Source: Candidatus Latescibacterota bacterium
GTDB lineage: Bacteria; Latescibacterota; CBDEFO01
Assembly: GCA_965248755.1 (NCBI GenBank)
Contig: OZ252149.1
Location: forward strand, 1,184,001-1,248,000
DNA: 64,000 bases
Reading direction: 5' to 3'
This document shows, in pieces, positions 51,704 to 64,000 of this stretch. The notes beneath the pieces were generated by a model, which was not told the DNA's origin, did not search any database, and worked only from the letters and a program-made list of their open reading frames with translations. The translations under genes were made by a program, and so were the position numbers. The first letter of the stretch is position 1, and each line of letters starts with the position of its first letter.

Positions 51704-51779
51704 GGGCTATTAGCTCAGTGGATAGAGCGTTGGTCTCCGGAACCAAAGGTCGCGCGTTCGAATCGCGCATAGCCCGCCA
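51704..51779 (+). tRNA. tRNA-Arg (anticodon CCG)
   Basis: GGGCTAT/ATAGCCC acceptor stem, TTGGT-CTCCGGA-ACCAA anticodon arm, GTTCGAATC T-loop, CCA end. Confidence 0.97.
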
Positions 51780-51780
51780 G

Positions 51781-51821
51781 AAATAAGGCCCTGTAGTACA
51801 AACACTTACAGGGCCTTATTT
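51781..51821. terminator. Hairpin terminator after the tRNA (possibly bidirectional)
   Basis: AAATAAGGCCCTGTA...TACAGGGCCTTATTT inverted repeat. Confidence 0.8.
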
Positions 51822-51888
51822 AATTTTTAAATGTTTCTAAATGTTTGCGATTTGGGATACTATTGGGATACTTTTCTGCCAGATTACT

Positions 51889-52983
51889 CTATTTTCCTAT
51901 GTTTTCGTCTACCTTCTTTTTGCCATAGTGCAAAGCATTGACCAAGTCCTTGACGTGGCCAGGTGCAAGATGAGCATACTTTAAGGTTGTGGAGTAATCA
52001 CGATGGCCAAGCAGTTCCTGGACAAAACGAAGATCAACTCCGTTCATGACAAGATGACTGGCAAACGTATGCCTTAATAAATGCAGCTTTAGGTCCGGCA
52101 CTCCAGATTCTTCAGAAAGTTTCTTTAAGCTTCTGTCAATTTTGTCTGTCAATCTATTCCCCAAATAGGTAAGAACATACTCTGAATTGTAGTTGTTGTG
52201 TTTCTGATATTTTTTGAGCTGCTCCAAGACCTCAAGAAGGACTTCAGTCATTCCAATGTATCTTACTCTATAGTTTTTAGTGTGCCAGTCATCTTTTGAC
52301 TCTATCTTCACAGTTTTATTCTTGAAATCGGTGTCCGTCCATTTATAGTTGAATAGCTCCTGTTTGCGCATTCCAGTTTGTAAACCAACTTGAATGGTTG
52401 GATACAGGTGGGCATATCTCTTGCCTTTCTTTCCTAACCCAATTGCAGCTTGGAGCACTGAATCAACTTCATCCTCGCTGAGAAATCTTGGCTCTCTCTC
52501 AGGGATTTTTGGACGTTCAACGTCACGAATGGCATTGGAACCCTGGTATCCTAACCTTGCAGCAATCTTCATCATATGAGAAAGAGTAGACATCTCGTGA
52601 ATTACTGTGTATGGACTTGCACCAGAATTTAGACGCTTCCTTTTGTATTCCTCGCATTGGCTGAAACTTATGCTTGACAGAGGCATACCACCAAAAGCCG
52701 GAATTAAATGCTGGTTGATATGAGATCTGTTGGAGAGAAAGCTTCTCCTTGATTTGTTCAGTTCAGCATATTCAAGGTATTGCTTGCTAAACTTTTCTAA
52801 AGTCACTTCCTTTGATTTTACATCAAGCCCAAACTTACCTTCAACAAATTCCTGCTCCCATTTTCGTGCAACTACATCAGCCTGTTTTTTCGTGCCGACA
52901 GCCTTTCTCGTAATACTACCGTCAGGAAGCTTAATGCAGGCATACCATTTTTTGCCTCTTTTGACAGTGAAAGCCATAATCAT
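51889..52983 (-). CDS. int: Tyrosine recombinase (phage-type integrase)
   Basis: N-terminal arm-binding-like segment; TGMRKQE, TKN, HLLRHTFAS, LGH, KYAH. Confidence 0.95.
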   Translation of the reverse strand: MIMAFTVKRGKKWYACIKLPDGSITRKAVGTKKQADVVARKWEQEFVEGKFGLDVKSKEVTLEKFSKQYLEYAELNKSRRSFLSNRSHINQHLIPAFGGMPLSSISFSQCEEYKRKRLNSGASPYTVIHEMSTLSHMMKIAARLGYQGSNAIRDVERPKIPEREPRFLSEDEVDSVLQAAIGLGKKGKRYAHLYPTIQVGLQTGMRKQELFNYKWTDTDFKNKTVKIESKDDWHTKNYRVRYIGMTEVLLEVLEQLKKYQKHNNYNSEYVLTYLGNRLTDKIDRSLKKLSEESGVPDLKLHLLRHTFASHLVMNGVDLRFVQELLGHRDYSTTLKYAHLAPGHVKDLVNALHYGKKKVDENIGK

Positions 52984-53219
52984 TATTCCTTTCTTCTACT
53001 GAAATGAATTAGAATATCATCCCACCTGAACCTAATCAATCTACCTATCCTGATAACCGGAAGCTCTGCTCTGTGCGTCATCTTGTAGACAGACGAGACA
53101 GGAATTTTTAACTTTTCAGCCAACTCTTCTGGTGTTAGTAGCTCATCAACAATGTCTTGAGAAGTATAAACTCTCTCATCATTAAAGGAATTGGACATTG
53201 CCTCGTCTGCGCTCATCAT
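52983..53219 (-). CDS. Excisionase-like HTH protein
   Basis: LLTPEELAEKLKI..S.VY......LP..RIG.LIRF; abuts the integrase. Confidence 0.88.
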   Translation of the reverse strand: MMSADEAMSNSFNDERVYTSQDIVDELLTPEELAEKLKIPVSSVYKMTHRAELPVIRIGRLIRFRWDDILIHFSRRKE

Positions 53220-53412
53220 TTTTTGACCTCCCTTTCAAGGCAGTTATTTTCCGACACCGCTCCTAAAAGATCATAAAAAACTATAAACACAACAACTTTC
53301 GGACGACTCAAAAAACCTGAAGGTTAGTAAGGTTATCTTTATTTTTCTTTCTTTCATAGGTGAACCATACCGCTCCCCTTGACAGAGCGACAAATATTTC
53401 GCAAATTGGGGT

Positions 53413-53742
53413 TTGAGAAGGGAGGTCAAGGTGTCGAGCCCCGAAGTGAAAGATGGTAAGCGCTGGACGGCGACCCGTAAGGGAGAGATTGTGTTGGCTC
53501 TTTTGAGAGGAGCAGATCTATCTGAGGTGTGTCGTAAGAATGGAATTAGCCAGTCGCAGGCGTATGCTTGGCGTGATAGTTTCTTAGAAGGGGGCCAGGA
53601 GAGTCTGAAGTCTCGGCGTGGTCGCAAGGATCCGAAGGAGCGAGAGGTTAGCCGGTTGGAGCGCAAGGTAGGGCAGTTGACGCTCCAGTTGGAGATACTC
53701 GAAGAGGTAGCCCGTCTAAAAAAAACGAAGCGGTTGCCTTGA
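53413..53742 (+). CDS. IS3-family transposase OrfA
   Basis: HTH (RWT..RK.EIV...L.G...EVCRK.GIS...Y.W), leucine zipper; A8 slippery run at 53718-53725. Confidence 0.9.
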   Translation: MRREVKVSSPEVKDGKRWTATRKGEIVLALLRGADLSEVCRKNGISQSQAYAWRDSFLEGGQESLKSRRGRKDPKEREVSRLERKVGQLTLQLEILEEVARLKKTKRLP

Positions 53743-54602
53743 GTGGGCGGTTTTTGGGTCGAGGCTATTCCCGCAAGGTGGTAGCTTTGGCTTTGGGTTT
53801 GCATCGTTCGACTCTGTATAGGTTTAGGGATAGAGGTGTCAGTTCTTCTGTTAAAGAGCCTGTGATAGATGAGGAGCTTGCTTTTCGTATTCGAGGGATA
53901 CTGGACCAAGAAGAGGCATTTGGTCACAGGCGGGTTTGGGCGCATCTTCGTTTCAAGGAAGGGGAATGTGTCAACGTTAAGAAGGTTCATAGGATAATGA
54001 AGCTTAAGGGGTGGCAGTGTAAGCTGTGGAATCGTCCCGGGAGAAAGGGGCCACAGGTTGCCCAGAAGCGTTCTGTGGTGGATAGTCCCGACAGTTTGTG
54101 GTCGAGTGACTTGACAAAGATTTACTGTGGAAAAGATGGTTGGTGTCCTCTTATTGCGGTGGTGGACAACGGAAGCCGGGAGGTTCCTGGGTATCGTTTT
54201 AGTCGAAAAGGGAGGGCACTGGAGGCCACAGATGCCCTGGATCGGGCCGTGATCTCTCGATACACTTCCAAGGAGGCTGTCCCCCAGGGTCTCACTTTGC
54301 GCTCTGACAATGGTTCCATCTTTTTGGCTCGGGCCTATTTGGCCAGTACCGAATATTGGGGAATTCGTCAGGAATACATACCAAGTGGTAAACCCGATTG
54401 GAACGGTGTTGTAGAGCGTTTTTTCAGGACCCTCAAGCAAGAGTGTGTTTGGCTTCACAAGTTTGAATCCTTTGAACAGGCTGAGAAGATCATATCTCAG
54501 TGGATCGATAATTACAACAAGAACAGGCTTCATTCATCCCTGGGATATAAGACCCCAAAAGAGTGGAGAAAACAATTTTATCTACTACCCCAGGTTGCTT
54601 AA
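53739..54602 (+). CDS. IS3-family transposase OrfB (DDE)
   Basis: FGHRRV, WSSDLT, RSDNGS.F, NGVVERFFRTLKQE, YN..R.HSSLGY.TP; -1 frame relative to orfA. Confidence 0.95.
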   Translation: MSGRFLGRGYSRKVVALALGLHRSTLYRFRDRGVSSSVKEPVIDEELAFRIRGILDQEEAFGHRRVWAHLRFKEGECVNVKKVHRIMKLKGWQCKLWNRPGRKGPQVAQKRSVVDSPDSLWSSDLTKIYCGKDGWCPLIAVVDNGSREVPGYRFSRKGRALEATDALDRAVISRYTSKEAVPQGLTLRSDNGSIFLARAYLASTEYWGIRQEYIPSGKPDWNGVVERFFRTLKQECVWLHKFESFEQAEKIISQWIDNYNKNRLHSSLGYKTPKEWRKQFYLLPQVA

Positions 54603-54659
54603 TTGGTGTCGCTTTCCTGGGAAGCAGTACAGAACTCCTATATAGCTGTCTCCTTCTGT

Positions 54660-55322
54660 TTAAAGATTCCTGATGATGTCCGTAAACCTGTCTAGCTCTT
54701 CCCCTGTAAGAGGCTTGGTGAAATAAGCCAACACACCCGGGCATCCACGTCCATCCACAATACTTCGATAATCCTTCAGGTAGCTAAGGAAAATTATCGG
54801 AATATCTCGGATTGTTTCTATTTTAGTCCTATGCCAAGCCATCTTGATACCATCCAGGCGAGAGAGGTCCACCTCTGAGACAATAAGGTCTGGATCCTCC
54901 CGTTCCATCACATCCAACGCCATCTCTCCGTCCTCAACTGTCAAAACATCAGCTCCCACTTCCTGTAGAATAGCTGTGATCTGTCGAATTACATTCGGGC
55001 TGTCATCCACGATTAAGACTTTCGGACAACTAACTCGCACCTTCTCTGGAGGAGATTCTTGCTCATTACCTATCAGTTCTTGTCCAGGGTCATCTTTCTT
55101 ACTTACAGTTTTTGAGGTATTTAGTCCCTGTCCAGGGTCACTCCTTGAAGCTTGGACATCTTTCATTACATCCGATGCTCGGATTCGCAATTCAGCCCCA
55201 TAATCCCCTTTCACATACATACTTCGATACCGTTTTTCGTGAACACGACGTCGGACAGTCTTTTCAGAAACTCTTAATAAATCAATAACTTGCCTTACTG
55301 ATAGCCATTTGCGGGTTGTCAT
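54660..55322 (-). CDS. Excisionase/MerR-like HTH fused to a receiver domain with Glu at the phospho-acceptor position
   Basis: WLSV..V..LL.VSEKTVRRR; VLIVDD...DLIVSEV...IIFLS...TKP. Confidence 0.8.
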   Translation of the reverse strand: MTTRKWLSVRQVIDLLRVSEKTVRRRVHEKRYRSMYVKGDYGAELRIRASDVMKDVQASRSDPGQGLNTSKTVSKKDDPGQELIGNEQESPPEKVRVSCPKVLIVDDSPNVIRQITAILQEVGADVLTVEDGEMALDVMEREDPDLIVSEVDLSRLDGIKMAWHRTKIETIRDIPIIFLSYLKDYRSIVDGRGCPGVLAYFTKPLTGEELDRFTDIIRNL

Positions 55323-55374
55323 GGTTCACTGCTTTCTGTTGAGACTCTTTTAAGCTTTGTCCAGGGTAGTTTTG

Positions 55375-55402
55375 ACTTCGTATAACCCGAATTATACGAA
55401 AT
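55375..55402. other. loxP/dif-like tyrosine recombinase target site
   Basis: ACTTCGTATAA-CCCGAA-TTATACGAAAT (11-6-11 inverted arms) about 50 bp downstream of the recombinase gene. Confidence 0.75.
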
Positions 55403-55452
55403 ACTATTTTCTCCTTTGCAATCCAAGGGCCTCATATATAAGAGAAAATGTT

Positions 55453-56433
55453 TTATTCCTCCGGTGCAGGTAAACCTCTGATAACATCCTGCTTTCGTTC
55501 CTGGTCTGAGTGCAGATATAGGGCTGAGGTTTCAATACTTGCGTGTCCTAAAAGCTCCTGAATATCCTTGATATTGGCTCCGGACTTTAACAAGCTGGTC
55601 GCAAAAGTATGCCTGCATTTGTGGGGACTTATGTCCTTCTGAATCCTCGACTCCTTAGCAATGTTTTTAACAATCCATTGAATTGTTCGATCACAGAGAG
55701 GATTCCCAGATTTGAGATTTATGTAGCAGTACTGATTCTGGAATTGGAGACTGATCTTCGCCTTCATCCATTTTTTGTAAGCATCCACCACAAGGCCATG
55801 GAGGGGTATATCCCTATTTTTCCCTCCCTTGGCATCCAGAATTTCCAGATAAGGAGAGTCGGTATCGATGTCCCGAAAATGAGTTGTATCCAATTGTGAT
55901 GCTTTATTAACTCTGATGCCAGTAAAAATAAGAGTGATCAAAAGAGAATGGTTCCTGATACCTCTTTGGTCGCTTTCTGATGTAGAATCTGAATTAAATG
56001 TAGATCTATGATAATTGATAATTTGAAAAACCTCTTCCTTGCTCAAAAATACAGGCTTGCCCTGAGACCTCTCCCATCTGGGAAGATCATCTTCTGCTTG
56101 CTCAACTGGATTGCTCGAAATATTACCCGCTCTTCTATGGTAGTTAAAGAATGAAGACAAGGTAGCAAGTCGGCGCTTTATAGAACTGCGTTTATGTCCA
56201 AGGTCTTTTTCCATAAAATCAAAGAAGGCTACAATATCATCAGCATCACATTTAAGTAGAGACTTGCGAAGATTTCTCTGTATAAACTCAAGGTCCTTGA
56301 TATAATTGTAAAGAGTAAGAGGGCGAAGACGTCTCCTCCTTCCTTCGATGAACTCCTTGATGGATTCATCTTTTACGTTGAGTTGCCGGATGATGTCGCT
56401 GTCAAACTTACTGAGTGGCATTGCTGTCCTCAA
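55453..56433 (-). CDS. XerC/XerD-like tyrosine recombinase
   Basis: SAM-like N-domain, TGIR, AKGGKNR.IP, SPHKCRHTFAT.LL..GA, IQELLGHASI.T..LY. Confidence 0.93.
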   Translation of the reverse strand: MRTAMPLSKFDSDIIRQLNVKDESIKEFIEGRRRRLRPLTLYNYIKDLEFIQRNLRKSLLKCDADDIVAFFDFMEKDLGHKRSSIKRRLATLSSFFNYHRRAGNISSNPVEQAEDDLPRWERSQGKPVFLSKEEVFQIINYHRSTFNSDSTSESDQRGIRNHSLLITLIFTGIRVNKASQLDTTHFRDIDTDSPYLEILDAKGGKNRDIPLHGLVVDAYKKWMKAKISLQFQNQYCYINLKSGNPLCDRTIQWIVKNIAKESRIQKDISPHKCRHTFATSLLKSGANIKDIQELLGHASIETSALYLHSDQERKQDVIRGLPAPEE

Positions 56434-58084
56434 CAGATTCGTAGAAGATCTTCACCTCAATATTGTTCTGCAACTTTTTAGTTATAATGCGGTGAATTTT
56501 ACCGTCCCAGTCTGAATAATGATACGCCTTACGCTTTAGCTCTGAGATTTCAGCGTTTAGTATTTGAATTTTCAGATTGAGATTGGATAATTTTTCTTGA
56601 TGGTCTACCTCTGCCTGTTTATGCCTAAGAGCCAAACTCTTTAAATCTGCTTGAATGGATTGGAGGCGGTTTGCCTTTTCCTGGACCTCTGACTTTGTGG
56701 TTCTTCCCAGATGCAGACGATGCTGATAGTCATTCAATTCATTTTCAGCCTGTTGTAATTTCCCCTTTAGCTCTAATTCTTCTGCTCTGAACTTCTCTAT
56801 CTTTTCATCCTGCACTTTGCTCTCATTGTGCAATTCATCCTTTGTATTCTCCAATTCCTGCTTTTTCAGGGTTATCTGTTCTATATGCCTTTTAATCTTT
56901 GCTAACAAATCCCCTTCCTGAGTAGCCATTCCCTCTTTTACGGCAAGGTCCTCAACATCTTGGATATGGAATGTATAGCTTGCCCATCTCTTCGATTTTT
57001 TAATAACTACAATGTCCTGAGGATAAAGAGTATAGACCAGCGAGATCTTTCCCCTTTCAACGATTAAATGTTCAAGCCCTTCTAAATCTTGATAAGTTGC
57101 GTATATTAGCGATAAAATCTTTCCAGATATGCTAACAGGATTGAAATGTAATGGAACTTTCTCAAGGGAATAATCATCAGTCAAAATAAGTGAAGGACTA
57201 ATCAAAAAATGCGAAACGTTTACATCCATCTCATTAGCTATCTCTCCTATAGCTTTTCCTGTCAAATCAATCTCCACCGGACCTTGTCTTTTATTTTTTC
57301 CCCCTCGATAGATGTGGATTTTATCAGCTCGTAGGATAGCTTTTGGATCTGTCCTGTCGTCTCCGATAGTCATCAGCCTATTATCAGGACTGCGCAGAAT
57401 GAGACGGCTGCCATCCTGTCCTATTACCATCCATTTTCCCTGCACTCTTATCTTCGTTGTCTGATGCCAGGCCGTAAAATCTGCCCAAAGTTGATAGTGG
57501 GACCCCCATTTCTCATAAAATTCTATGGATGCCTTTACATCTGCAAAACCCCAATTTAATATCCATCGTGGACCGATCCAATTTACAGGAAGTAAGACGA
57601 ACACCGTAAGTCCCAATAGAGTCCATCTAAATTTCTCTTCTTTCTTGCTTCCTGTGGGGATCCAAGTCTTAGTATTGGGAGAAAACTGCCACATCTCATC
57701 TGAAAAAGGCGACATCCACTTTATCCCATTAGGGGATGCGCTGTCCAAAGCTTGATGGGAAGCCAGGCCAAGCAGAAAGGCCGTATAACAGTCTGCTCTG
57801 TTTAGCCAAAGAAGAGGAGATAGAAATACTGCAGTGAGAAACAAGAACGGTGCGCTGTGGAAGAAATCTCTATGAACAACAGAAATACCAAATTTTCTTA
57901 GAAGAGGTACTAAACCTATTGCTCTTCCAACTACTGCTGTCTCCCTATCTACATCAGAAATGATGCTCCCCACGGTGCATGATATGAGGCACAAAAGACC
58001 GGAGAACAGATTAAAGTCGAAACCCCTGAAAATATTCAGAAATAGAAAAAGGGCTATCCCCGCTACAACGTGTGTCTCAATCAT
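56408..58084 (-). CDS. YdjM-type membrane metal-dependent hydrolase fused to a coiled-coil/lipoyl-hairpin (HlyD-like) region
   Basis: ETH, GS..SD.D, HRDFFHS, SHQALD; C-terminal LAVKEG....GDLLAKI + long coiled coil + S..DG.I..I. Confidence 0.75.
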   Translation of the reverse strand: MIETHVVAGIALFLFLNIFRGFDFNLFSGLLCLISCTVGSIISDVDRETAVVGRAIGLVPLLRKFGISVVHRDFFHSAPFLFLTAVFLSPLLWLNRADCYTAFLLGLASHQALDSASPNGIKWMSPFSDEMWQFSPNTKTWIPTGSKKEEKFRWTLLGLTVFVLLPVNWIGPRWILNWGFADVKASIEFYEKWGSHYQLWADFTAWHQTTKIRVQGKWMVIGQDGSRLILRSPDNRLMTIGDDRTDPKAILRADKIHIYRGGKNKRQGPVEIDLTGKAIGEIANEMDVNVSHFLISPSLILTDDYSLEKVPLHFNPVSISGKILSLIYATYQDLEGLEHLIVERGKISLVYTLYPQDIVVIKKSKRWASYTFHIQDVEDLAVKEGMATQEGDLLAKIKRHIEQITLKKQELENTKDELHNESKVQDEKIEKFRAEELELKGKLQQAENELNDYQHRLHLGRTTKSEVQEKANRLQSIQADLKSLALRHKQAEVDHQEKLSNLNLKIQILNAEISELKRKAYHYSDWDGKIHRIITKKLQNNIEVKIFYESVEDSNATQ

Positions 58085-58962
58085 TTCTTCCCCTTGTTTT
58101 TGAGAAAAGGAAGGACGAATTTACCCAGGAAGATACCCAAGATCATGCCCAGACAACCCAGGACGATGCTGACACGATCATGTTCTCCCTCGACCAGTCT
58201 TGACAGATACCTGTTAAAGATCAAAACAAACAGCATAGGTATGCACACCCAAAGGTACATATATCGAACCTTAGCTGTATGGAGCTTCTCAACGCTATCT
58301 ATAATCTCATTAGTCAGGTGTCGAGACTTCTGATAGCGTTCCAGAGCTTTTTCAATCAAACCAGGATACCCTTTGGTCTTTATAAACAATTCTCGCTTAA
58401 CATATCCCAGGTCTTCTATAACCCACCCTTCAACGAGATACTCGATGTATGCTCCTGAATCCTTCTCATCCAAACCAGCGATCTCCATAGGACGACCCAG
58501 CCGCTCGATGAAACTATTGTTCTTGTTCAAACTATGTGCACATACCAAAAATGTTACTCCAAGGCTATGAAGCTCACAAAGAGCTCTTAGAGCATTACCA
58601 CTGCCGGGCAAGCTCCCCTCAAAGTCTACGATACAGATTACTTGAGACCCCACACTTTTGATCTTACTCCTTACCATGCCCGCTAGTGCTGAAGTAGTAA
58701 GGCTCCTATTTCCACTGGAGAATATCTTCTTTTCCTCTTCACATTTGAGCTGAAAACAGATTTCTTGTAATAGAGGCTTTTCGTTACGCACGGATGTCAA
58801 AAAAACAACCTCTTCAAAACTCTCCTCACAAAGTCGTCTGAGGACCTGGCGAAGGATCGTGCTTGACCCACATCCTAGCTCCCCCAACAGGACAACAGAG
58901 TCGCCCTGCTTCAGAGATGACGTGGTGTCCTCAGTGATATTGTCTATTCCAAAAACCTTCAT
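58081..58962 (-). CDS. ExeA-like P-loop ATPase with degenerate Walker A and two C-terminal TM helices
   Basis: VVLLGELGCGSST (Lys to Ser), ICIVDFE, TKGYPGLI, hydrophobic C-terminus. Confidence 0.65.
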   Translation of the reverse strand: MKVFGIDNITEDTTSSLKQGDSVVLLGELGCGSSTILRQVLRRLCEESFEEVVFLTSVRNEKPLLQEICFQLKCEEEKKIFSSGNRSLTTSALAGMVRSKIKSVGSQVICIVDFEGSLPGSGNALRALCELHSLGVTFLVCAHSLNKNNSFIERLGRPMEIAGLDEKDSGAYIEYLVEGWVIEDLGYVKRELFIKTKGYPGLIEKALERYQKSRHLTNEIIDSVEKLHTAKVRYMYLWVCIPMLFVLIFNRYLSRLVEGEHDRVSIVLGCLGMILGIFLGKFVLPFLKNKGKK

Positions 58963-59654
58963 TCTTCAACTCTCTTCCAAGGTCTATCCCAACCGGTTAA
59001 CTCCATTAATTCTTGTAGAACTATCACCTGCTCATCTTCATTATCCAACCTCATAGACTCAATGCCATAGAACTCTATCCGAGCGCTTTGAAGCTGGTCT
59101 AGTGTTGCCTCTTGAGTTTTGTATCTATTGTCATAGAACTCCATTAACTCCCTTAATACCCCGGCCTTCTGATTGTAGAGCGTAGCTTTTCGTTTTAGTC
59201 CCTTCCAAAGCAGATATGTTTTGGTAATGTCTCGGATAAGAGATATGTGAGTATTCTTCAGTTCTCTACGGGCTGTCTCCAACTTCAACTTTGCTTCTCT
59301 GTGATCGTATCTTCCTGTGTTAAAAAGTCTGTCCAGATCCCAACTCAGACGGACGAAAGTTGTCTGCTCTTCAATCAAACGACTACCTTGCATAGCTTCG
59401 AGATTAGAGCCCCAGCTCAAAGACATTGATGGGATAAGTCGGGATGCTATGTTTGTTCTAAGAACATCCAGCTCTGCCAGCTGTACTTTACCCTCTGCTT
59501 CCTGCAGAAAAGGAGAGTGGATTCTTGCATATTCAATCATCTGTTCCAGCGACAACTCTTCAAAAGAATCTGGATACTCATCTGCAGGAGTTGGCTGTTC
59601 GAGAAAGAGGACGATAAGAAATCCCAGAATCAATTTAGAACTCAGATGTCTCAT
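58959..59654 (-). CDS. TolC-like outer-membrane efflux protein, single-repeat (half-length)
   Basis: Signal peptide; LSLEQ.IE.A...SP.L, P.MSLS, L.W...LF, DITKTY, RY....AT..L..A. Confidence 0.65.
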   Translation of the reverse strand: MRHLSSKLILGFLIVLFLEQPTPADEYPDSFEELSLEQMIEYARIHSPFLQEAEGKVQLAELDVLRTNIASRLIPSMSLSWGSNLEAMQGSRLIEEQTTFVRLSWDLDRLFNTGRYDHREAKLKLETARRELKNTHISLIRDITKTYLLWKGLKRKATLYNQKAGVLRELMEFYDNRYKTQEATLDQLQSARIEFYGIESMRLDNEDEQVIVLQELMELTGWDRPWKRVEE

Positions 59655-59818
59655 TAAAGGAGTCCTTACGTTAGATACCAGAAACTATTATGTTCACTTC
59701 TTCTCTATGTGAGAATCTGTCCAAGTGATTTGAAACATAAAGGATATGATGTTACAAAATTCTTTGTAATCTACAGGAATTCAGCCATATAGGATATAGA
59801 CGCACGCACCATCTGAAT

Positions 59819-60388
59819 TTAGTAGAGTCTTTCCTTCAAGACCAATTTGAACTTCGAATTGTACTTTCCGCCACCACATCTCCTACAACTTCCAGTAATC
59901 CATTTTCTCCGCCTAAACTCACGCCCACATTCCGGACAAATAAAGACATATTTAATAGGCCTTTTCGGCATGGGTTTGGCGCATTGGGGATCGCATCCTA
60001 TTCGCTTGCAGATTTCCTTGAACTCATCGGTATGTCCTGAGGGTCTGCCATTCTGTTTGAGGAATAAATGTACCATCTCATGTTTAACAGTGTCCTCCAA
60101 TTCTTCCTGCCAATTATACGTGTCATGATATTTTGCAGAAATTACCATTTCCCAGGGGGAATAAGTCACCTTTCCTGCGGCGCGGGTCATCCTCTTACTG
60201 ATCCTGATAGACGGCGGACGAATAAGCCCGTCAAAGTATTTGAAGTTGAATTGGTCAAAGAGGGCTCTGATCTTTTCGACGTTGAGCGTGGTCGGATTAT
60301 CATTCTGTGAACCTGGACTCACAGCTACACCTTTCTTTTTTGTGCTAAACTTAAAGACCTTGAGTATAAAATCTGAAATTTGAAACAA
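59819..60388 (-). CDS. SprT-like zinc metalloprotease with zinc ribbon
   Basis: FN..YF, S.RMTR.AG, KHEMVH, GH..EF, CPECG...CRRC. Confidence 0.9.
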   Translation of the reverse strand: MFQISDFILKVFKFSTKKKGVAVSPGSQNDNPTTLNVEKIRALFDQFNFKYFDGLIRPPSIRISKRMTRAAGKVTYSPWEMVISAKYHDTYNWQEELEDTVKHEMVHLFLKQNGRPSGHTDEFKEICKRIGCDPQCAKPMPKRPIKYVFICPECGREFRRRKWITGSCRRCGGGKYNSKFKLVLKERLY

Positions 60389-60542
60389 AGGTTATTAAGG
60401 AGCTAGGATTTTCCCTAACGTTCAGGGCTATCAGTATTGACAAAGCCCAAAAGAACGGCCATATTTTAAATAGAAGGAGATTCCTGCCTTCTCCAAAAGC
60501 ATCGAAAAACTTAAAAAGAGGCGGACGTGAAGACCATAAAGA

Positions 60543-60866
60543 ATGACCGATGCAGACTATAAGCCCGGGGCACGATGTAGATTCTATCCTCAATGTGCTA
60601 TCTACAACTTGGGGTTGCTTAGAGAAGAAGCTGAACTTACGCTTTGTGGTAACGGACAGACTATACAAAAGGATTATATTCCAAGAATTCAAGATGTTCA
60701 TACTCCTCCTTCAAGGGAAGCTGGGTCTCCTGGCGAGATGGCAGTTTGTCCTGCTTTTGTAGGCATGATAGAATCCCTTCTAACAGGAACAATTCGGGCC
60801 TATATTGAGCAAATTGATCAGTTCTGGCAAAGAAGAAGAGACCTGGACGATATATTTGATGAATAA
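60543..60866 (+). CDS. Small Cys-containing hypothetical protein
   Basis: 107 aa with C-x5-C...C...CP; no family recognised. Confidence 0.5.
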   Translation: MTDADYKPGARCRFYPQCAIYNLGLLREEAELTLCGNGQTIQKDYIPRIQDVHTPPSREAGSPGEMAVCPAFVGMIESLLTGTIRAYIEQIDQFWQRRRDLDDIFDE

Positions 60867-60926
60867 TTGAGCTCCACCTATCCACTTTAATATAAGTCTA
60901 CTCTATTATTCGTTTTTCGTCTATAG

Positions 60927-60954
60927 ACTCTGCATAATATATTTTTTGTTAGAT
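60927..60954. other. dif-like (XerC/XerD) site
   Basis: ACTCTGCATAA-TATATT-TTTTGTTAGAT versus E. coli dif GGTGCGCATAA-TGTATA-TTATGTTAAAT. Confidence 0.5.
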
Positions 60955-60987
60955 TCTGGAAGATCTGAATAGTCTGAGGATAAGCAG

Positions 60988-63231
60988 ATGACATCAAATT
61001 ATGTTTTCTTCTATGGGGATAGACTTCGTGAGGCAAGGTGTAAGAAAGGACTTACACAACAGGAAGTGGCGGATAAAGTGGGGGCATCACAGCCGGAAAT
61101 TTCAGACTATGAACGAGAGATAAAAGGATGTTTTATGGGTAGAGCTAGAAAGATAGTAGATTTTTTTAAGGTACCTTACGAAGAGCTAGTTCAGAGAGCA
61201 GAAACTATAAAAGGTGAGGTTCAAATTCCGTCCTCTCCTCCTCCTCGTGATATCGCTCATTTTAAGGGTCGAACCGATGAAATCAACAGGATCAAGAAAA
61301 TCCTAAGAGGTGAAGGTAAAGTAGGCATCTTGGGAATGGCAGGCATTTTTGGTATGGGTGGGATTGGAAAGACAGCGCTAGCTACGCATGTGGTGGCGGA
61401 TCCAGAAATACGAAAACAATTTCGTGACGGCGTAATATGGTTCGAAGTAGGGGAAGAACAGGACGTAATGATCGTTTTAGATCGACTCGGAGGACACTTG
61501 AAGTCTCCCAGTATCGGGAGAAAAGAGACAGAAGGAGACAAGCTCTCTTCCTTACTTGAGATTCTGTCTGAACTCCACGCGCTGATCGTATATGATAACG
61601 TATGGAGCGACCAAATAGCCCAAACTTTGGTGCGTCATTACGGAACATGTTCAGTGATTCTTACCGGCCGTAAGACGTTGGCTTTAGGATTAGTTGAGCC
61701 AGTTCCTCTTAAAGGTCTGGAACGAGATAAAGCCAGAGAGCTTTTCTGTTTGCTATCGGAATTAAATGAGGCACAACATGGAGAGATAGTAGATGAAATC
61801 TGTCGTCTCGTATCCTATCATCCACTCGCCATTAAGATATTGGCCACGAATCCGATCCGGAAGATGGCCCCCGAACATCTTCTCAAACGATTAAGTACTC
61901 CTGAGCGGCTCAAGCTCCTTCAAGATACATCAGAGGACAAGGACAACAGTGTGCGGGTGTCCTTTGATATCTCCTTTGAGGATTTAGAGAAAAAAGACCA
62001 ACGACTCTTTGCAGCACTAGGTACTTTTGGAAGGCCAAGTTTTACACTAGAGGCAGTGGAAGCTGTAATGAATAAAACTGGTTTGGAGGACGATCTTGGA
62101 ATTCTGATTAACTGTTCAATTATAGAAAGAGAAGGAGAACGTTATCGACTTCACGACCTAATGTGGGACTACGCAAAGGAAAAGCTGTTAGAACTGGAAG
62201 ACAATGAAGAACTTTCTGAGCGTATGGCGACCTACTTTTTGAATGTGGCAGAAGAAGATGCCAGTATACTGGAAACAGATAAAGAGAACGTCTTCTTCGC
62301 TATGGACTGGTACTACGAACGCAAAAGATGGGAGAGTGTATATCGGTTCATATATGAAAGAAATAACAAAGGCACATTTGACTTTCTCAATTTTCACGGC
62401 TACTGGAGCGAGGGAATTAAGCAATGTGAGAAAGCAATAGAGGCTGCAAACCGAGCAGGAAATCATATGCGTGAAGGGGCAATACTTAGTTATCTGGGAA
62501 TCTTTTATCAACATCGTGGCAAATTCAATCAGGCGGAAAAGATCTATACGCAGTCTTATGAAATCTTCAGGGAACAGAAAGCCAAGGAACAGATTGGATC
62601 ACTACTTCATCAACTTGGTAGAGTTGCTCAGGAACGTAAGGACTTGGACAAAGCCGAAGAATCTTATTTGAAAGCTTTAGATTCTTTTGAAGCTCTTGAG
62701 GAGACACTGGATAAGAAAAGGACAATTCAATTGCGCAGGGCAAGAACAATTCAGCAATTGGGAAGAATACATGAGTTGCGCTGTAATTGGGACAAGGCCG
62801 AGGAACGACATTGTGAAAGTTTGGAGATCAGAGAAAGCATTGACGATCCACATGGGAAGGCACAATGCCTTCAGCAACTTGGGAAGATTGCAAAAATCAA
62901 AGGAGACTTAGAAAAAGCTAAGAGTCTGATGAGAGAAAGCCTCCAAATAAAGAGAAAAATCGGAGATATCCAAAATGCAGGTAATAGCTTAGCAAGCCTT
63001 GGTCTGATCGCTAAAGATGAAGAGCATTTTGAGGATGCTTTCAGCATGCTTTACGAAGCGAAGTCTATATTCCTCTATCTTGAATCACCTAAGCTGAAGA
63101 ATTTGGAGGAAGAATTATCCGATGTCCGTTCAAAGCTCTCGCCGTCGGTGGTCCACAAACTTGAGCAAGAGACAGAAGCGAAGCTGAAAGACTGGCCTGC
63201 ATTATCTACGCTGTACGATCATCAGAAGTAA
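60988..63231 (+). CDS. STAND NTPase: XRE-HTH + NB-ARC + TPR (NLR-like)
   Basis: LREAR..KGLTQ.EVA..VG.SQ..IS.YE; F.GR; GMGGIGKT; LIVYDNVW; ILTGR; YHPLAI; RLHDL; TPR array. Confidence 0.92.
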   Translation: MTSNYVFFYGDRLREARCKKGLTQQEVADKVGASQPEISDYEREIKGCFMGRARKIVDFFKVPYEELVQRAETIKGEVQIPSSPPPRDIAHFKGRTDEINRIKKILRGEGKVGILGMAGIFGMGGIGKTALATHVVADPEIRKQFRDGVIWFEVGEEQDVMIVLDRLGGHLKSPSIGRKETEGDKLSSLLEILSELHALIVYDNVWSDQIAQTLVRHYGTCSVILTGRKTLALGLVEPVPLKGLERDKARELFCLLSELNEAQHGEIVDEICRLVSYHPLAIKILATNPIRKMAPEHLLKRLSTPERLKLLQDTSEDKDNSVRVSFDISFEDLEKKDQRLFAALGTFGRPSFTLEAVEAVMNKTGLEDDLGILINCSIIEREGERYRLHDLMWDYAKEKLLELEDNEELSERMATYFLNVAEEDASILETDKENVFFAMDWYYERKRWESVYRFIYERNNKGTFDFLNFHGYWSEGIKQCEKAIEAANRAGNHMREGAILSYLGIFYQHRGKFNQAEKIYTQSYEIFREQKAKEQIGSLLHQLGRVAQERKDLDKAEESYLKALDSFEALEETLDKKRTIQLRRARTIQQLGRIHELRCNWDKAEERHCESLEIRESIDDPHGKAQCLQQLGKIAKIKGDLEKAKSLMRESLQIKRKIGDIQNAGNSLASLGLIAKDEEHFEDAFSMLYEAKSIFLYLESPKLKNLEEELSDVRSKLSPSVVHKLEQETEAKLKDWPALSTLYDHQK

Positions 63232-63502
63232 CAGAAGCTGGTGCCTATAGAAACTGAAATACAGAAGTACCCGATCAACAACATAATGATATGACGTTTC
63301 ACCTTTTCAGACACAGCTTTGCTAACACCGAAAGAGACTAAAGAACCATGAAAGGCCGACGCCAAAATCCTTGTTCATACCGCAATCAACACTAATCTGG
63401 ATGAATACGGCACCTAGGATTTGGAAGAGGTGCAAGGAAATTACGAGAAGCTAACAACAGTGATAAGCAGAACAAATGATCTCATTATAAAAGGAAATAG
63501 CA

Positions 63503-64000
63503 ATGTCAGATAATCTGATCTTTGTAAGCTGTGGACAACAAACGCCCGAAGAGAAAGACTTAGGCACTGCTGTAAAGAACTTAATCGATTCAACACCAGG
63601 TTTCAAAGCCTACTTTGCAGAACACGAACAAAGTCTCGATTCTGATGTACTAAATATTTTCAAAAATCTTTGGGAATGTTCTGGATTTATAGCATTGCTC
63701 CATAAGAGGAATAGGATGGCTGAAACAGAAGAATGCTACCCCTCTGTCTGGGTAAACCAGGAGATAGCGATAATTGCTTATCGACAGCATTTTGAAGCAA
63801 GAGAAATCCCTATTCTTGTATATAAGGATGATGAAGTTCGGGTAGAAGGCTCGATGGCTTCGCTTATCGTAAATCCGCTCACTTTGAAATCGAAACCAGA
63901 TGTTCTGGAACGAACAGGGAAATGGTTATCAGATCCTGGCTCACCTTGGGCTACATCAGGTAACTACGCTATCTTCTTATCAAAATGGATAAAACTTCCC
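63503..64000 (+). CDS. TIR-like / nucleoside-deoxyribosyltransferase-like domain protein (partial, runs off window)
   Basis: Open frame absent from the ORF track: MSDNLIFVSCGQ...GFKAYFA...CSGFIALLH...SVWVNQEIA..AY...IPILVY; AAGGA RBS. Confidence 0.7.
   Translation, partial: MSDNLIFVSCGQQTPEEKDLGTAVKNLIDSTPGFKAYFAEHEQSLDSDVLNIFKNLWECSGFIALLHKRNRMAETEECYPSVWVNQEIAIIAYRQHFEAREIPILVYKDDEVRVEGSMASLIVNPLTLKSKPDVLERTGKWLSDPGSPWATSGNYAIFLSKWIKLP

Follow-up and report, generated by a model that had tools for sequence, protein, structure and literature searches.

A half-size TolC, a membrane AAA+ protein and a YdjM-membrane fusion protein encoded on a Latescibacterota island: one variant of a widespread plasmid and island module, tentatively read as a channel for DNA

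The stretch analysed here, referred to as the window, comprises 64,000 nucleotides of contig OZ252149.1 of a Candidatus Latescibacterota bacterium (assembly GCA_965248755.1, positions 1,184,001 to 1,248,000), and near its right-hand end lies a minus-strand operon that encodes a half-size TolC protein, a membrane-anchored AAA+ protein, a YdjM-type hydrolase fused to the arm of a membrane fusion protein (MFP), and a tyrosine recombinase. Our comparisons showed that the module these genes represent is real and widespread and that it fits no family tested, its parts being members of known families. We read the window genes as one variant of a conserved plasmid and island module, predicted to form an export channel for the element's own DNA that does not depend on a type IV secretion system (T4SS), and hold this reading as a tentative one whose chances fall a little short of even. 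The genes of the operon and the recombination site that follows them are:

58959 to 59654, minus strand: one-repeat (half-size) outer-membrane protein of the TolC/OEP family, 231 residues, PF02321 (the TolC-half)
58081 to 58962, minus strand: AAA_22-like AAA+ protein with a C-terminal membrane hairpin, 293 residues (the ATPase)
56408 to 58084, minus strand: YdjM membrane metallo-hydrolase fused to an MFP arm, 558 residues, from PF04307 and a structural model (the fusion)
55453 to 56421, minus strand: full-length tyrosine recombinase with core-binding and catalytic domains, 322 residues counted from the ATG, from Pfam
55375 to 55402, no strand: palindromic Xer/lox-type site, two 11-bp arms around a 6-bp spacer

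An earlier note on this DNA, made from the sequence alone, had described four overlapping minus-strand genes, and all four open reading frames (ORFs) were found where it placed them. The TolC-half/ATPase and ATPase/YdjM junctions are ATGA stop/start overlaps at 58959-58962 and 58081-58084, respectively. The third overlap exists too, but it is likelier to be 56408-56421 than the 56408-56433 first proposed, for the recombinase ATG at 56421 is preceded by GAGGA 5 nt upstream and so has a ribosome-binding motif, while the alternative TTG lies 12 nt farther. Counts of promoters and terminators were no different from those in shuffled sequence.

The identity of the TolC-half was borne out by a Pfam search, a profile search and a census of the host genome. 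Its 231 residues hold a single PF02321 OEP match (residues 36-221, E 7.5e-11); a profile built from it and eight relatives recovered one repeat of CmeC and of two other solved outer-membrane factor (OMF) channels (E 5e-4 to 2e-3); and of 17 OEP matches in the host genome, 16 pair into eight two-repeat proteins, which leaves the TolC-half as the sole single-repeat OEP. Read by eye, its N-terminus is likely a signal peptide.

The proposed fusion of a YdjM hydrolase to an MFP also proved sound, with PF04307 covering residues 2-165 (E 1.4e-19, Pfam) and a modelled hairpin arm at the other end. Folding of the single sequence gave a predicted local distance difference test score (pLDDT) of only 49, and the model used was that made by AlphaFold from an alignment of 42 rows, with a pLDDT of 88.5. 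In it a helical YdjM domain (1-170) is followed by a beta barrel (172-265), a second beta domain (266-353) and, at about 365-552, an MFP lipoyl domain with a 120-residue hairpin arm. The best Foldseek matches of this model were EmrA, HlyD and MacA (E 6e-5 to 8e-4); residues 367-551 aligned with EmrA over 184 residues at Z 11.5, the root-mean-square deviation (rmsd) being as high as 16.6 because the hinges differ, and the barrel matched the C-terminal domain of TrmB over 85 residues (Z 13.2, rmsd 1.6). All the His and Asp residues that are invariant in the family are kept in the window protein (H5, D44, D46, H71, H76, H110 and D114), and Zn_dep_PLPC was matched by 8 of 42 YdjM family members. 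In the sections of PMC8557891 drawn on here, YdjM is related to the alpha-toxin phospholipase C (PLC), Het-C and S1-P1 nuclease domains. Among the fold matches listed for the whole model, in searches that were dominated by the hairpin, there was no solved PLC or P1 nuclease, and a profile of the long YdjM found no sequence relative in the PDB. The fusion shares just 16-26% identity with any relative, and a word-index protein search with it, as a single sequence and as a profile, had only the fusion itself among the matches listed.

In Pfam the ATPase gave weak matches to AAA_22 (E 2.8e-5, under the cut-off) and to the STAND-type nSTAND_NTPase5 (E 7e-5), with NLR chains among its PDB matches, and its matches to ABC transporters were to the P-loop only and far below the cut-off. 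The family profile, which includes the window ATPase, scores it at E 2e-79, and its two C-terminal hydrophobic segments (232-250 and 266-284) are conserved in the family. Its Walker A motif has a serine in the K33 column and its Walker B motif has lost the second acid, only D112 being left; because of these losses the protein is likely inactive. The label of membrane pseudo-ATPase given to it earlier thus suits the window copy but not the family, since each of the 24 non-redundant relatives compared has the Walker A lysine (23 by pattern, one by eye), and from these motifs inactivity appears to be a peculiarity of the window copy. Used alone as a query, it had zero plasmid matches. Complex prediction for YdjM residues 1-365 with the ATPase gave 0.02 (mark 0.32).

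When homologues were compared, as the earlier note had suggested, the gene set was found to be syntenic across phyla, on plasmids and islands, its sites being plasmids and variable loci. The YdjM fusion matched 15 plasmids and a central relative matched 81, some of them via the short YdjM domain only. In all 14 plasmid regions read (from Thermus, Flavobacterium, Nitrosococcus, Allochromatium, Fusobacteria, Synechocystis, Thermococcus, Microcystis, Spirosoma, Desulfocapsa, Synechococcus, Methylobacter and Haliscomenobacter), the ATPase lay within 4 kb of YdjM. A genome scan for the YdjM motif (144 relatives) returned 78 loci, biased towards Gammaproteobacteria, 74 of them with a scorable gene; an ATPase stood beside the long YdjM at 62 of these 74 and at 34 of the 36 that had enough flank. 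As the pair recurs even in an archaeon, which has no outer membrane, the ATPase and the long YdjM are taken to be the fixed core, to which the TolC-half and MFP appear, from their distribution, to be optional diderm additions. A supported TolC-half is present at 9 of the 36 well-flanked loci, and 16 have a secreted helical protein at the same position; an initial count of 25 "OEP-like" loci, made with profiles built from the same loci that were counted, was reduced to the nine, the 16 secreted proteins of gammaproteobacterial type not being shown to be OEP-like.

Within this family the layout closest to that of the window is found on Thermus plasmids, where an ATPase, a TolC-half, two small genes and a YdjM-MFP fusion occur in that order with a recombinase 5-7 kb off; carriers include Thermus plasmids of 19-25 kb and Synechocystis pSYSX. 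Across the loci, YdjM and MFP are fused in 21 of the ORFs counted, and an MFP stands by itself in 17 ORFs or fragments; in 15 ORFs, some of them duplicates, a recombinase is fused to the ATPase. The recombinase-ATPase fusions have all the catalytic residues and lack the core-binding domain. Thermonuclease neighbours recur at the loci of nine clusters, and a HerA/TrwB-like ATPase directly follows YdjM on two cyanobacterial plasmids. In the host's own phylum the ATPase profile was matched in 26 of 168 genomes, three of them weakly, and a genome of the same genus gave no match to it. No viral contig was matched by the single YdjM protein and one locus was matched with an alignment query; among 50,697 phage records the module had no match. 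A variant in Bacteroidota and Ignavibacteria combines a TolC-half, a 430-residue protein, a Lin1244-like protein, a PolX-like fragment, a YdjM-MFP fusion, a RadA-like ATPase and the module ATPase, and ends with a serine or tyrosine recombinase gene.

The Pfam scan of the surroundings covered 42 ORFs, 37 of the island with its right edge and five of a second locus, and found no transporter, T4SS, relaxase, or capsid or tail gene. The statements of the earlier note that neither an ABC, RND or MFS transporter nor T4SS or phage structural genes are present could thus be extended beyond the window to the island ORFs scanned, and a search of the host genome (98% complete, one contig) found neither VirB4 (PF03135) nor the coupling protein (PF02534). 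Comparison of 28 island ORFs with PHROGs found no named Zot/pI gene and no structural phage gene; the three envelope genes match no PHROG, and the HerA and MoxR ATPases of the island match a terminase-labelled PHROG via the P-loop region only. The island HerA likewise matched TrwB over a 24-residue P-loop segment only. Plasmids that carry the module were typed as non-mobilizable in 15 of 15, 13 of 13 (these two sets overlap) and 39 of 41 records, as against 38 of 61 in a control set of cyanobacterial plasmids found by their replication protein; Fisher's p for module versus control plasmids, 1e-4, overstates the contrast because the plasmid records are kin. The parts themselves, the way they co-occur and fuse, and the absence of any known transfer gene among the ORFs scanned are direct results, from which we infer transfer or export of DNA.

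How such a channel might work can be sketched from the domain content. The inner-membrane unit would be made up of the anchored AAA+ protein together with YdjM, whose metal site, of phospholipase C or S1-P1 nuclease type, may process DNA or open a path through the membrane. The beta domains and the MFP arm would lie on the periplasmic side, docked on the TolC-half, six copies of which would be needed for a TolC-like duct. Excision of a circle would fall to the island integrase, and the recombinase next to the envelope genes, with its site, would keep that circle monomeric. Some relatives have a catalytic-only recombinase joined to their ATPase, and there the recombinase may act as a membrane-tethered nickase like MobK, TcpM and MpsA. 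The window ATPase would probably be a mere scaffold, with energy coming from elsewhere, the HerA-type ATPase of the island being a candidate, or else export may have been lost. A bolder generalization, for which our confidence is somewhat lower, is a self-transfer process across Bacteria and Archaea that is independent of relaxases and T4SSs and that would drive plasmid or island DNA with the membrane AAA+ protein as motor, YdjM as a nuclease or phospholipase gate, a hexameric half-TolC as duct and, in some lineages, a membrane-tethered tyrosine recombinase as nickase.

Several observations weigh against an export channel for DNA. The window ATPase is dead by sequence, and the window recombinase retains its core-binding domain and has no clear kinship with the fused ones in a tree. 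A tyrosine recombinase occurs within 10 kb at only 23 of the 36 well-flanked loci, often on the opposite strand. No MFP was found at any of the 51 gammaproteobacterial loci, so the minimal trans-envelope machine proposed in the earlier note is apt for the window variant but not for the family, in which the TolC-half and MFP are optional, and the gammaproteobacterial secreted partner is not demonstrably TolC-like. The island HerA could not be aligned with the module-linked HerA of the cyanobacterial plasmids. In the parts of PMC8557891 used here, the paper on YdjM favours a phospholipase over a nuclease. Kinship inflates the plasmid counts, 15 of the 41 records being from Synechocystis and 7 from Synechococcus, and the typing was done with MOB-suite, by which distant or undescribed relaxases are missed; MOB_M relaxases, according to the portion of bioRxiv 10.64898/2026.01.13.699239 drawn on, escape standard profiles.

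Of the other explanations, we consider unlikely, though deserving of attention, that the module is an envelope guard, in which a sensor ATPase and a membrane phospholipase or nuclease act against phages or rival elements through defence, exclusion or abortive infection. The weak STAND-type matches of the ATPase and its NLR chains in the PDB would suit a sensor, YdjM is toxin-related in the consulted sections of PMC8557891, and the island and the plasmids bear restriction-modification, Gabija and toxin-antitoxin cargo; however, such a guard needs neither recombinase-ATPase fusions nor an outer-membrane duct, the PADLOC 2.0 models match module proteins only by one coiled-coil and weak P-loop matches, and on small plasmids the module sits amid replication, partition and recombinase genes. 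Equally improbable in our estimate is that the exported cargo is a protein, a lipid or a small molecule, or that membranes are remodelled to shed vesicles, which perhaps carry the element passively. MFP and OMF folds are typical of type I secretion and efflux, a phospholipase-type site fits membrane remodelling, and in Thermus and Bacteroidota the module has genes for secreted proteins or lipoproteins at its flanks, but no cargo gene is common across phyla, no ABC, RND or MFS engine was found among the ORFs scanned, and the joining of a DNA-cutting enzyme to the ATPase suggests DNA as the substrate. Least probable, and by some way, is that the window copy is a remnant, decaying or domesticated, with a TolC-half and MFP arm that work for transporters of the host and a recombinase that is an unrelated neighbour, since, for all the dead Walker motifs, the low identity to relatives, the many insertion sequence (IS) copies, broken GajB and degenerate sister locus of the island, and the eight full TolC proteins (and so many pumps) of the host, all four frames are intact and coupled, the YdjM metal ligands and ATPase membrane hairpin are preserved, and the gene set is conserved across phyla.

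The recombinase and its site gave a separate picture from that of the envelope genes. The protein has the Phage_integrase and SAM (Phage_int_SAM_1) domains with the catalytic residues R170, H267, R270, H293 and Y302 all intact, and scores below the XerC and XerD cut-offs (160 bits versus 330-335). The lox-like site that had been noticed after it was confirmed as an 11-6-11 palindrome 50 bp after the recombinase stop, with arms complementary at 10 of 11 positions; its core at 55377-55400 is the sole match in the window, 100 shuffles gave none, and the palindrome is likely the cognate site of the adjacent recombinase. Elsewhere in the genome (1968744-1969770), a degenerate sister locus, 78% identical and lying between IS elements, contains the 3' end of a recombinase, the site and a frameshifted paralogue of the helix-turn-helix (HTH)-receiver gene; in the sister site (genome 1969491) both arms have altered in step while the spacer is the same, a pattern that speaks for selection on the palindromic form. 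Of the envelope genes the host genome has just the one copy. The host also has XerC/XerD-like genes elsewhere, and a dif-like site, found by a dif-type pattern, lies at genome 4501699, near the GC-skew maximum at 4500543. Among 80 metagenome loci (of at least 118) surveyed, 30 had the arm motif no more than 500 bp from a tyrosine recombinase, none had a YdjM gene and one had a weak ATPase match, and the site was accordingly rejected as a marker of the module. One 2.5-kb metagenome contig has four copies of the arm-motif site, 410-550 bp apart, in a cassette-like arrangement. A quick recombinase tree of 39 rows (eight duplicate or long rows and ten near-duplicates were left out) did not place the window protein or tie it to module-linked recombinases; fused proteins fell into at least three groups, a pattern compatible with repeated fusion but no proof of it. 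Judged by these comparisons, the recombinase with its site resembles a resolution unit of a general kind, a pairing that also occurs without the module, and so, while the recombinase gene does overlap and is coupled to the envelope genes, its membership of their machine is not supported by the tree and site data.

The operon is carried by an island that spans 51.7 kb from attL to attR at a tRNA-Arg gene and extends past the window, its GC content being about 42-44% versus 49% for the genome. Its other features, and those adjoining the operon, are:

51735 to 51775, plus strand: attL core, 41 bp inside tRNA-Arg(CCG) (51704-51779), with an exact repeat at genome 1287362-1287402
51889 to 53219, minus strand: island integrase (51889-52983) and excisionase-like HTH gene (52983-53219), from Pfam
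53366 to 54631: IS3-family element that separates the HTH-receiver gene from the excisionase gene; the genome has more than 40 near-identical copies
54660 to 55322, minus strand: HTH and response-regulator receiver gene after the palindromic site, from Pfam
59819 to 60388, minus strand: SprT-like zinc protease gene, 164 bp upstream of the operon
60988 to 63231: HTH, NB-ARC and TPR (STAND-type) protein of 747 residues in the island, from Pfam
Genome 1248551 to 1253060: operon of a HerA/DUF87 ATPase, a MoxR-type AAA protein and a vWA protein, on the module's strand and 8 kb upstream of it
Genome 1260478 to 1266345: secreted CBM9/TPR/redoxin/NHL gene cluster, of which the genome has several further copies at 86-90% identity
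Genome 1268640 to 1274927: 6.3-kb unit with a zinc-ribbon tyrosine recombinase, with an identical repeat at 2711395-2717682
Genome 1275355 to 1283106: Eco57I-type restriction-modification gene and Gabija, its GajB broken by IS3

In having an integrase, an excisionase and att repeats placed at a tRNA gene, the island agrees with integrative and conjugative or integrative and mobilizable elements, and its cargo further includes a single-stranded DNA-binding protein and IS copies. The SprT-like protease had no recurring partnership with the module in the loci compared. In contigs from four runs of one sample, no joints at the site or attL were found. Depth in one of these runs was 12-14 over 51746-55433 and 6.6 over 55404-64000, with the host flank at 10.3, and a second run of that sample has a variant contig at 55624; the excess at the left end may reflect a second strain or an element that shares the left end of the island, the depth not being copy number.

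Set beside known systems, the window genes resemble the tripartite exporters HlyBD-TolC, MacAB-TolC and EmrAB-TolC in having an OEP protein and, by predicted fold, an MFP lipoyl and hairpin arm. They differ in that their OMF has one repeat rather than two, no ABC, RND or MFS transporter is present, the MFP is fused to a YdjM hydrolase, an AAA+ protein with a membrane anchor is the partner, and the whole is borne by a mobile element. Like the MOB_M relaxases MobK, TcpM and MpsA, as described in the sections of PMC8152469 drawn on, the fused relatives have a catalytic domain without a core-binding domain, but those relaxases feed a T4SS whereas in the relatives, where there is no T4SS, the recombinase is joined to a membrane ATPase; the window recombinase, which has a core-binding domain, differs from them in this. 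With Xer/dif and Cre/lox it shares the catalytic residues and an 11-6-11 site beside the gene, although, unlike dif, its site has symmetric arms and lies away from the terminus. Thermus transjugation (TdtA), the archaeal Ced system and pT26-2, non-T4SS systems shown or proposed to move DNA (the consulted portions of PMC6972569, PMC5365140 and PMC11868833), are alike in having element-encoded membrane proteins and an ATPase, and for the core genes of pT26-2 a comparable but distinct ATPase-plus-membrane transfer module has been proposed (same portion of PMC6972569). Compared by description only, these use HerA/VirB4-type or other ATPases, and YdjM, MFP and TolC-half go unmentioned in those portions. 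E. coli YdjM/PRK11648 and the Liberibacter YdjM, a proposed phospholipase toxin, share the YdjM domain and metal ligands, but the window YdjM is below the PRK11648 cut-off, and module YdjM proteins have 170-390 extra residues and a fixed ATPase partner.

No model in NCBIfam, PHROG or PADLOC names the module, and a description of it was not found in the main texts of the open-licence PMC and bioRxiv literature. It recurs in at least seven bacterial phyla and one archaeon, and bears on the open question of how plasmids and islands without a relaxase or T4SS spread. Should the proposed export of DNA be correct, it would explain the spread of a class of "non-mobilizable" plasmids, provide a first function for YdjM hydrolases, and supply a natural one-repeat TolC with a bearing on the evolution of TolC channels. 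The carriers include plasmids of the tractable models Thermus thermophilus and Synechocystis 6803, which makes the proposal testable, and under the rival readings too the module would be an undescribed envelope machine.

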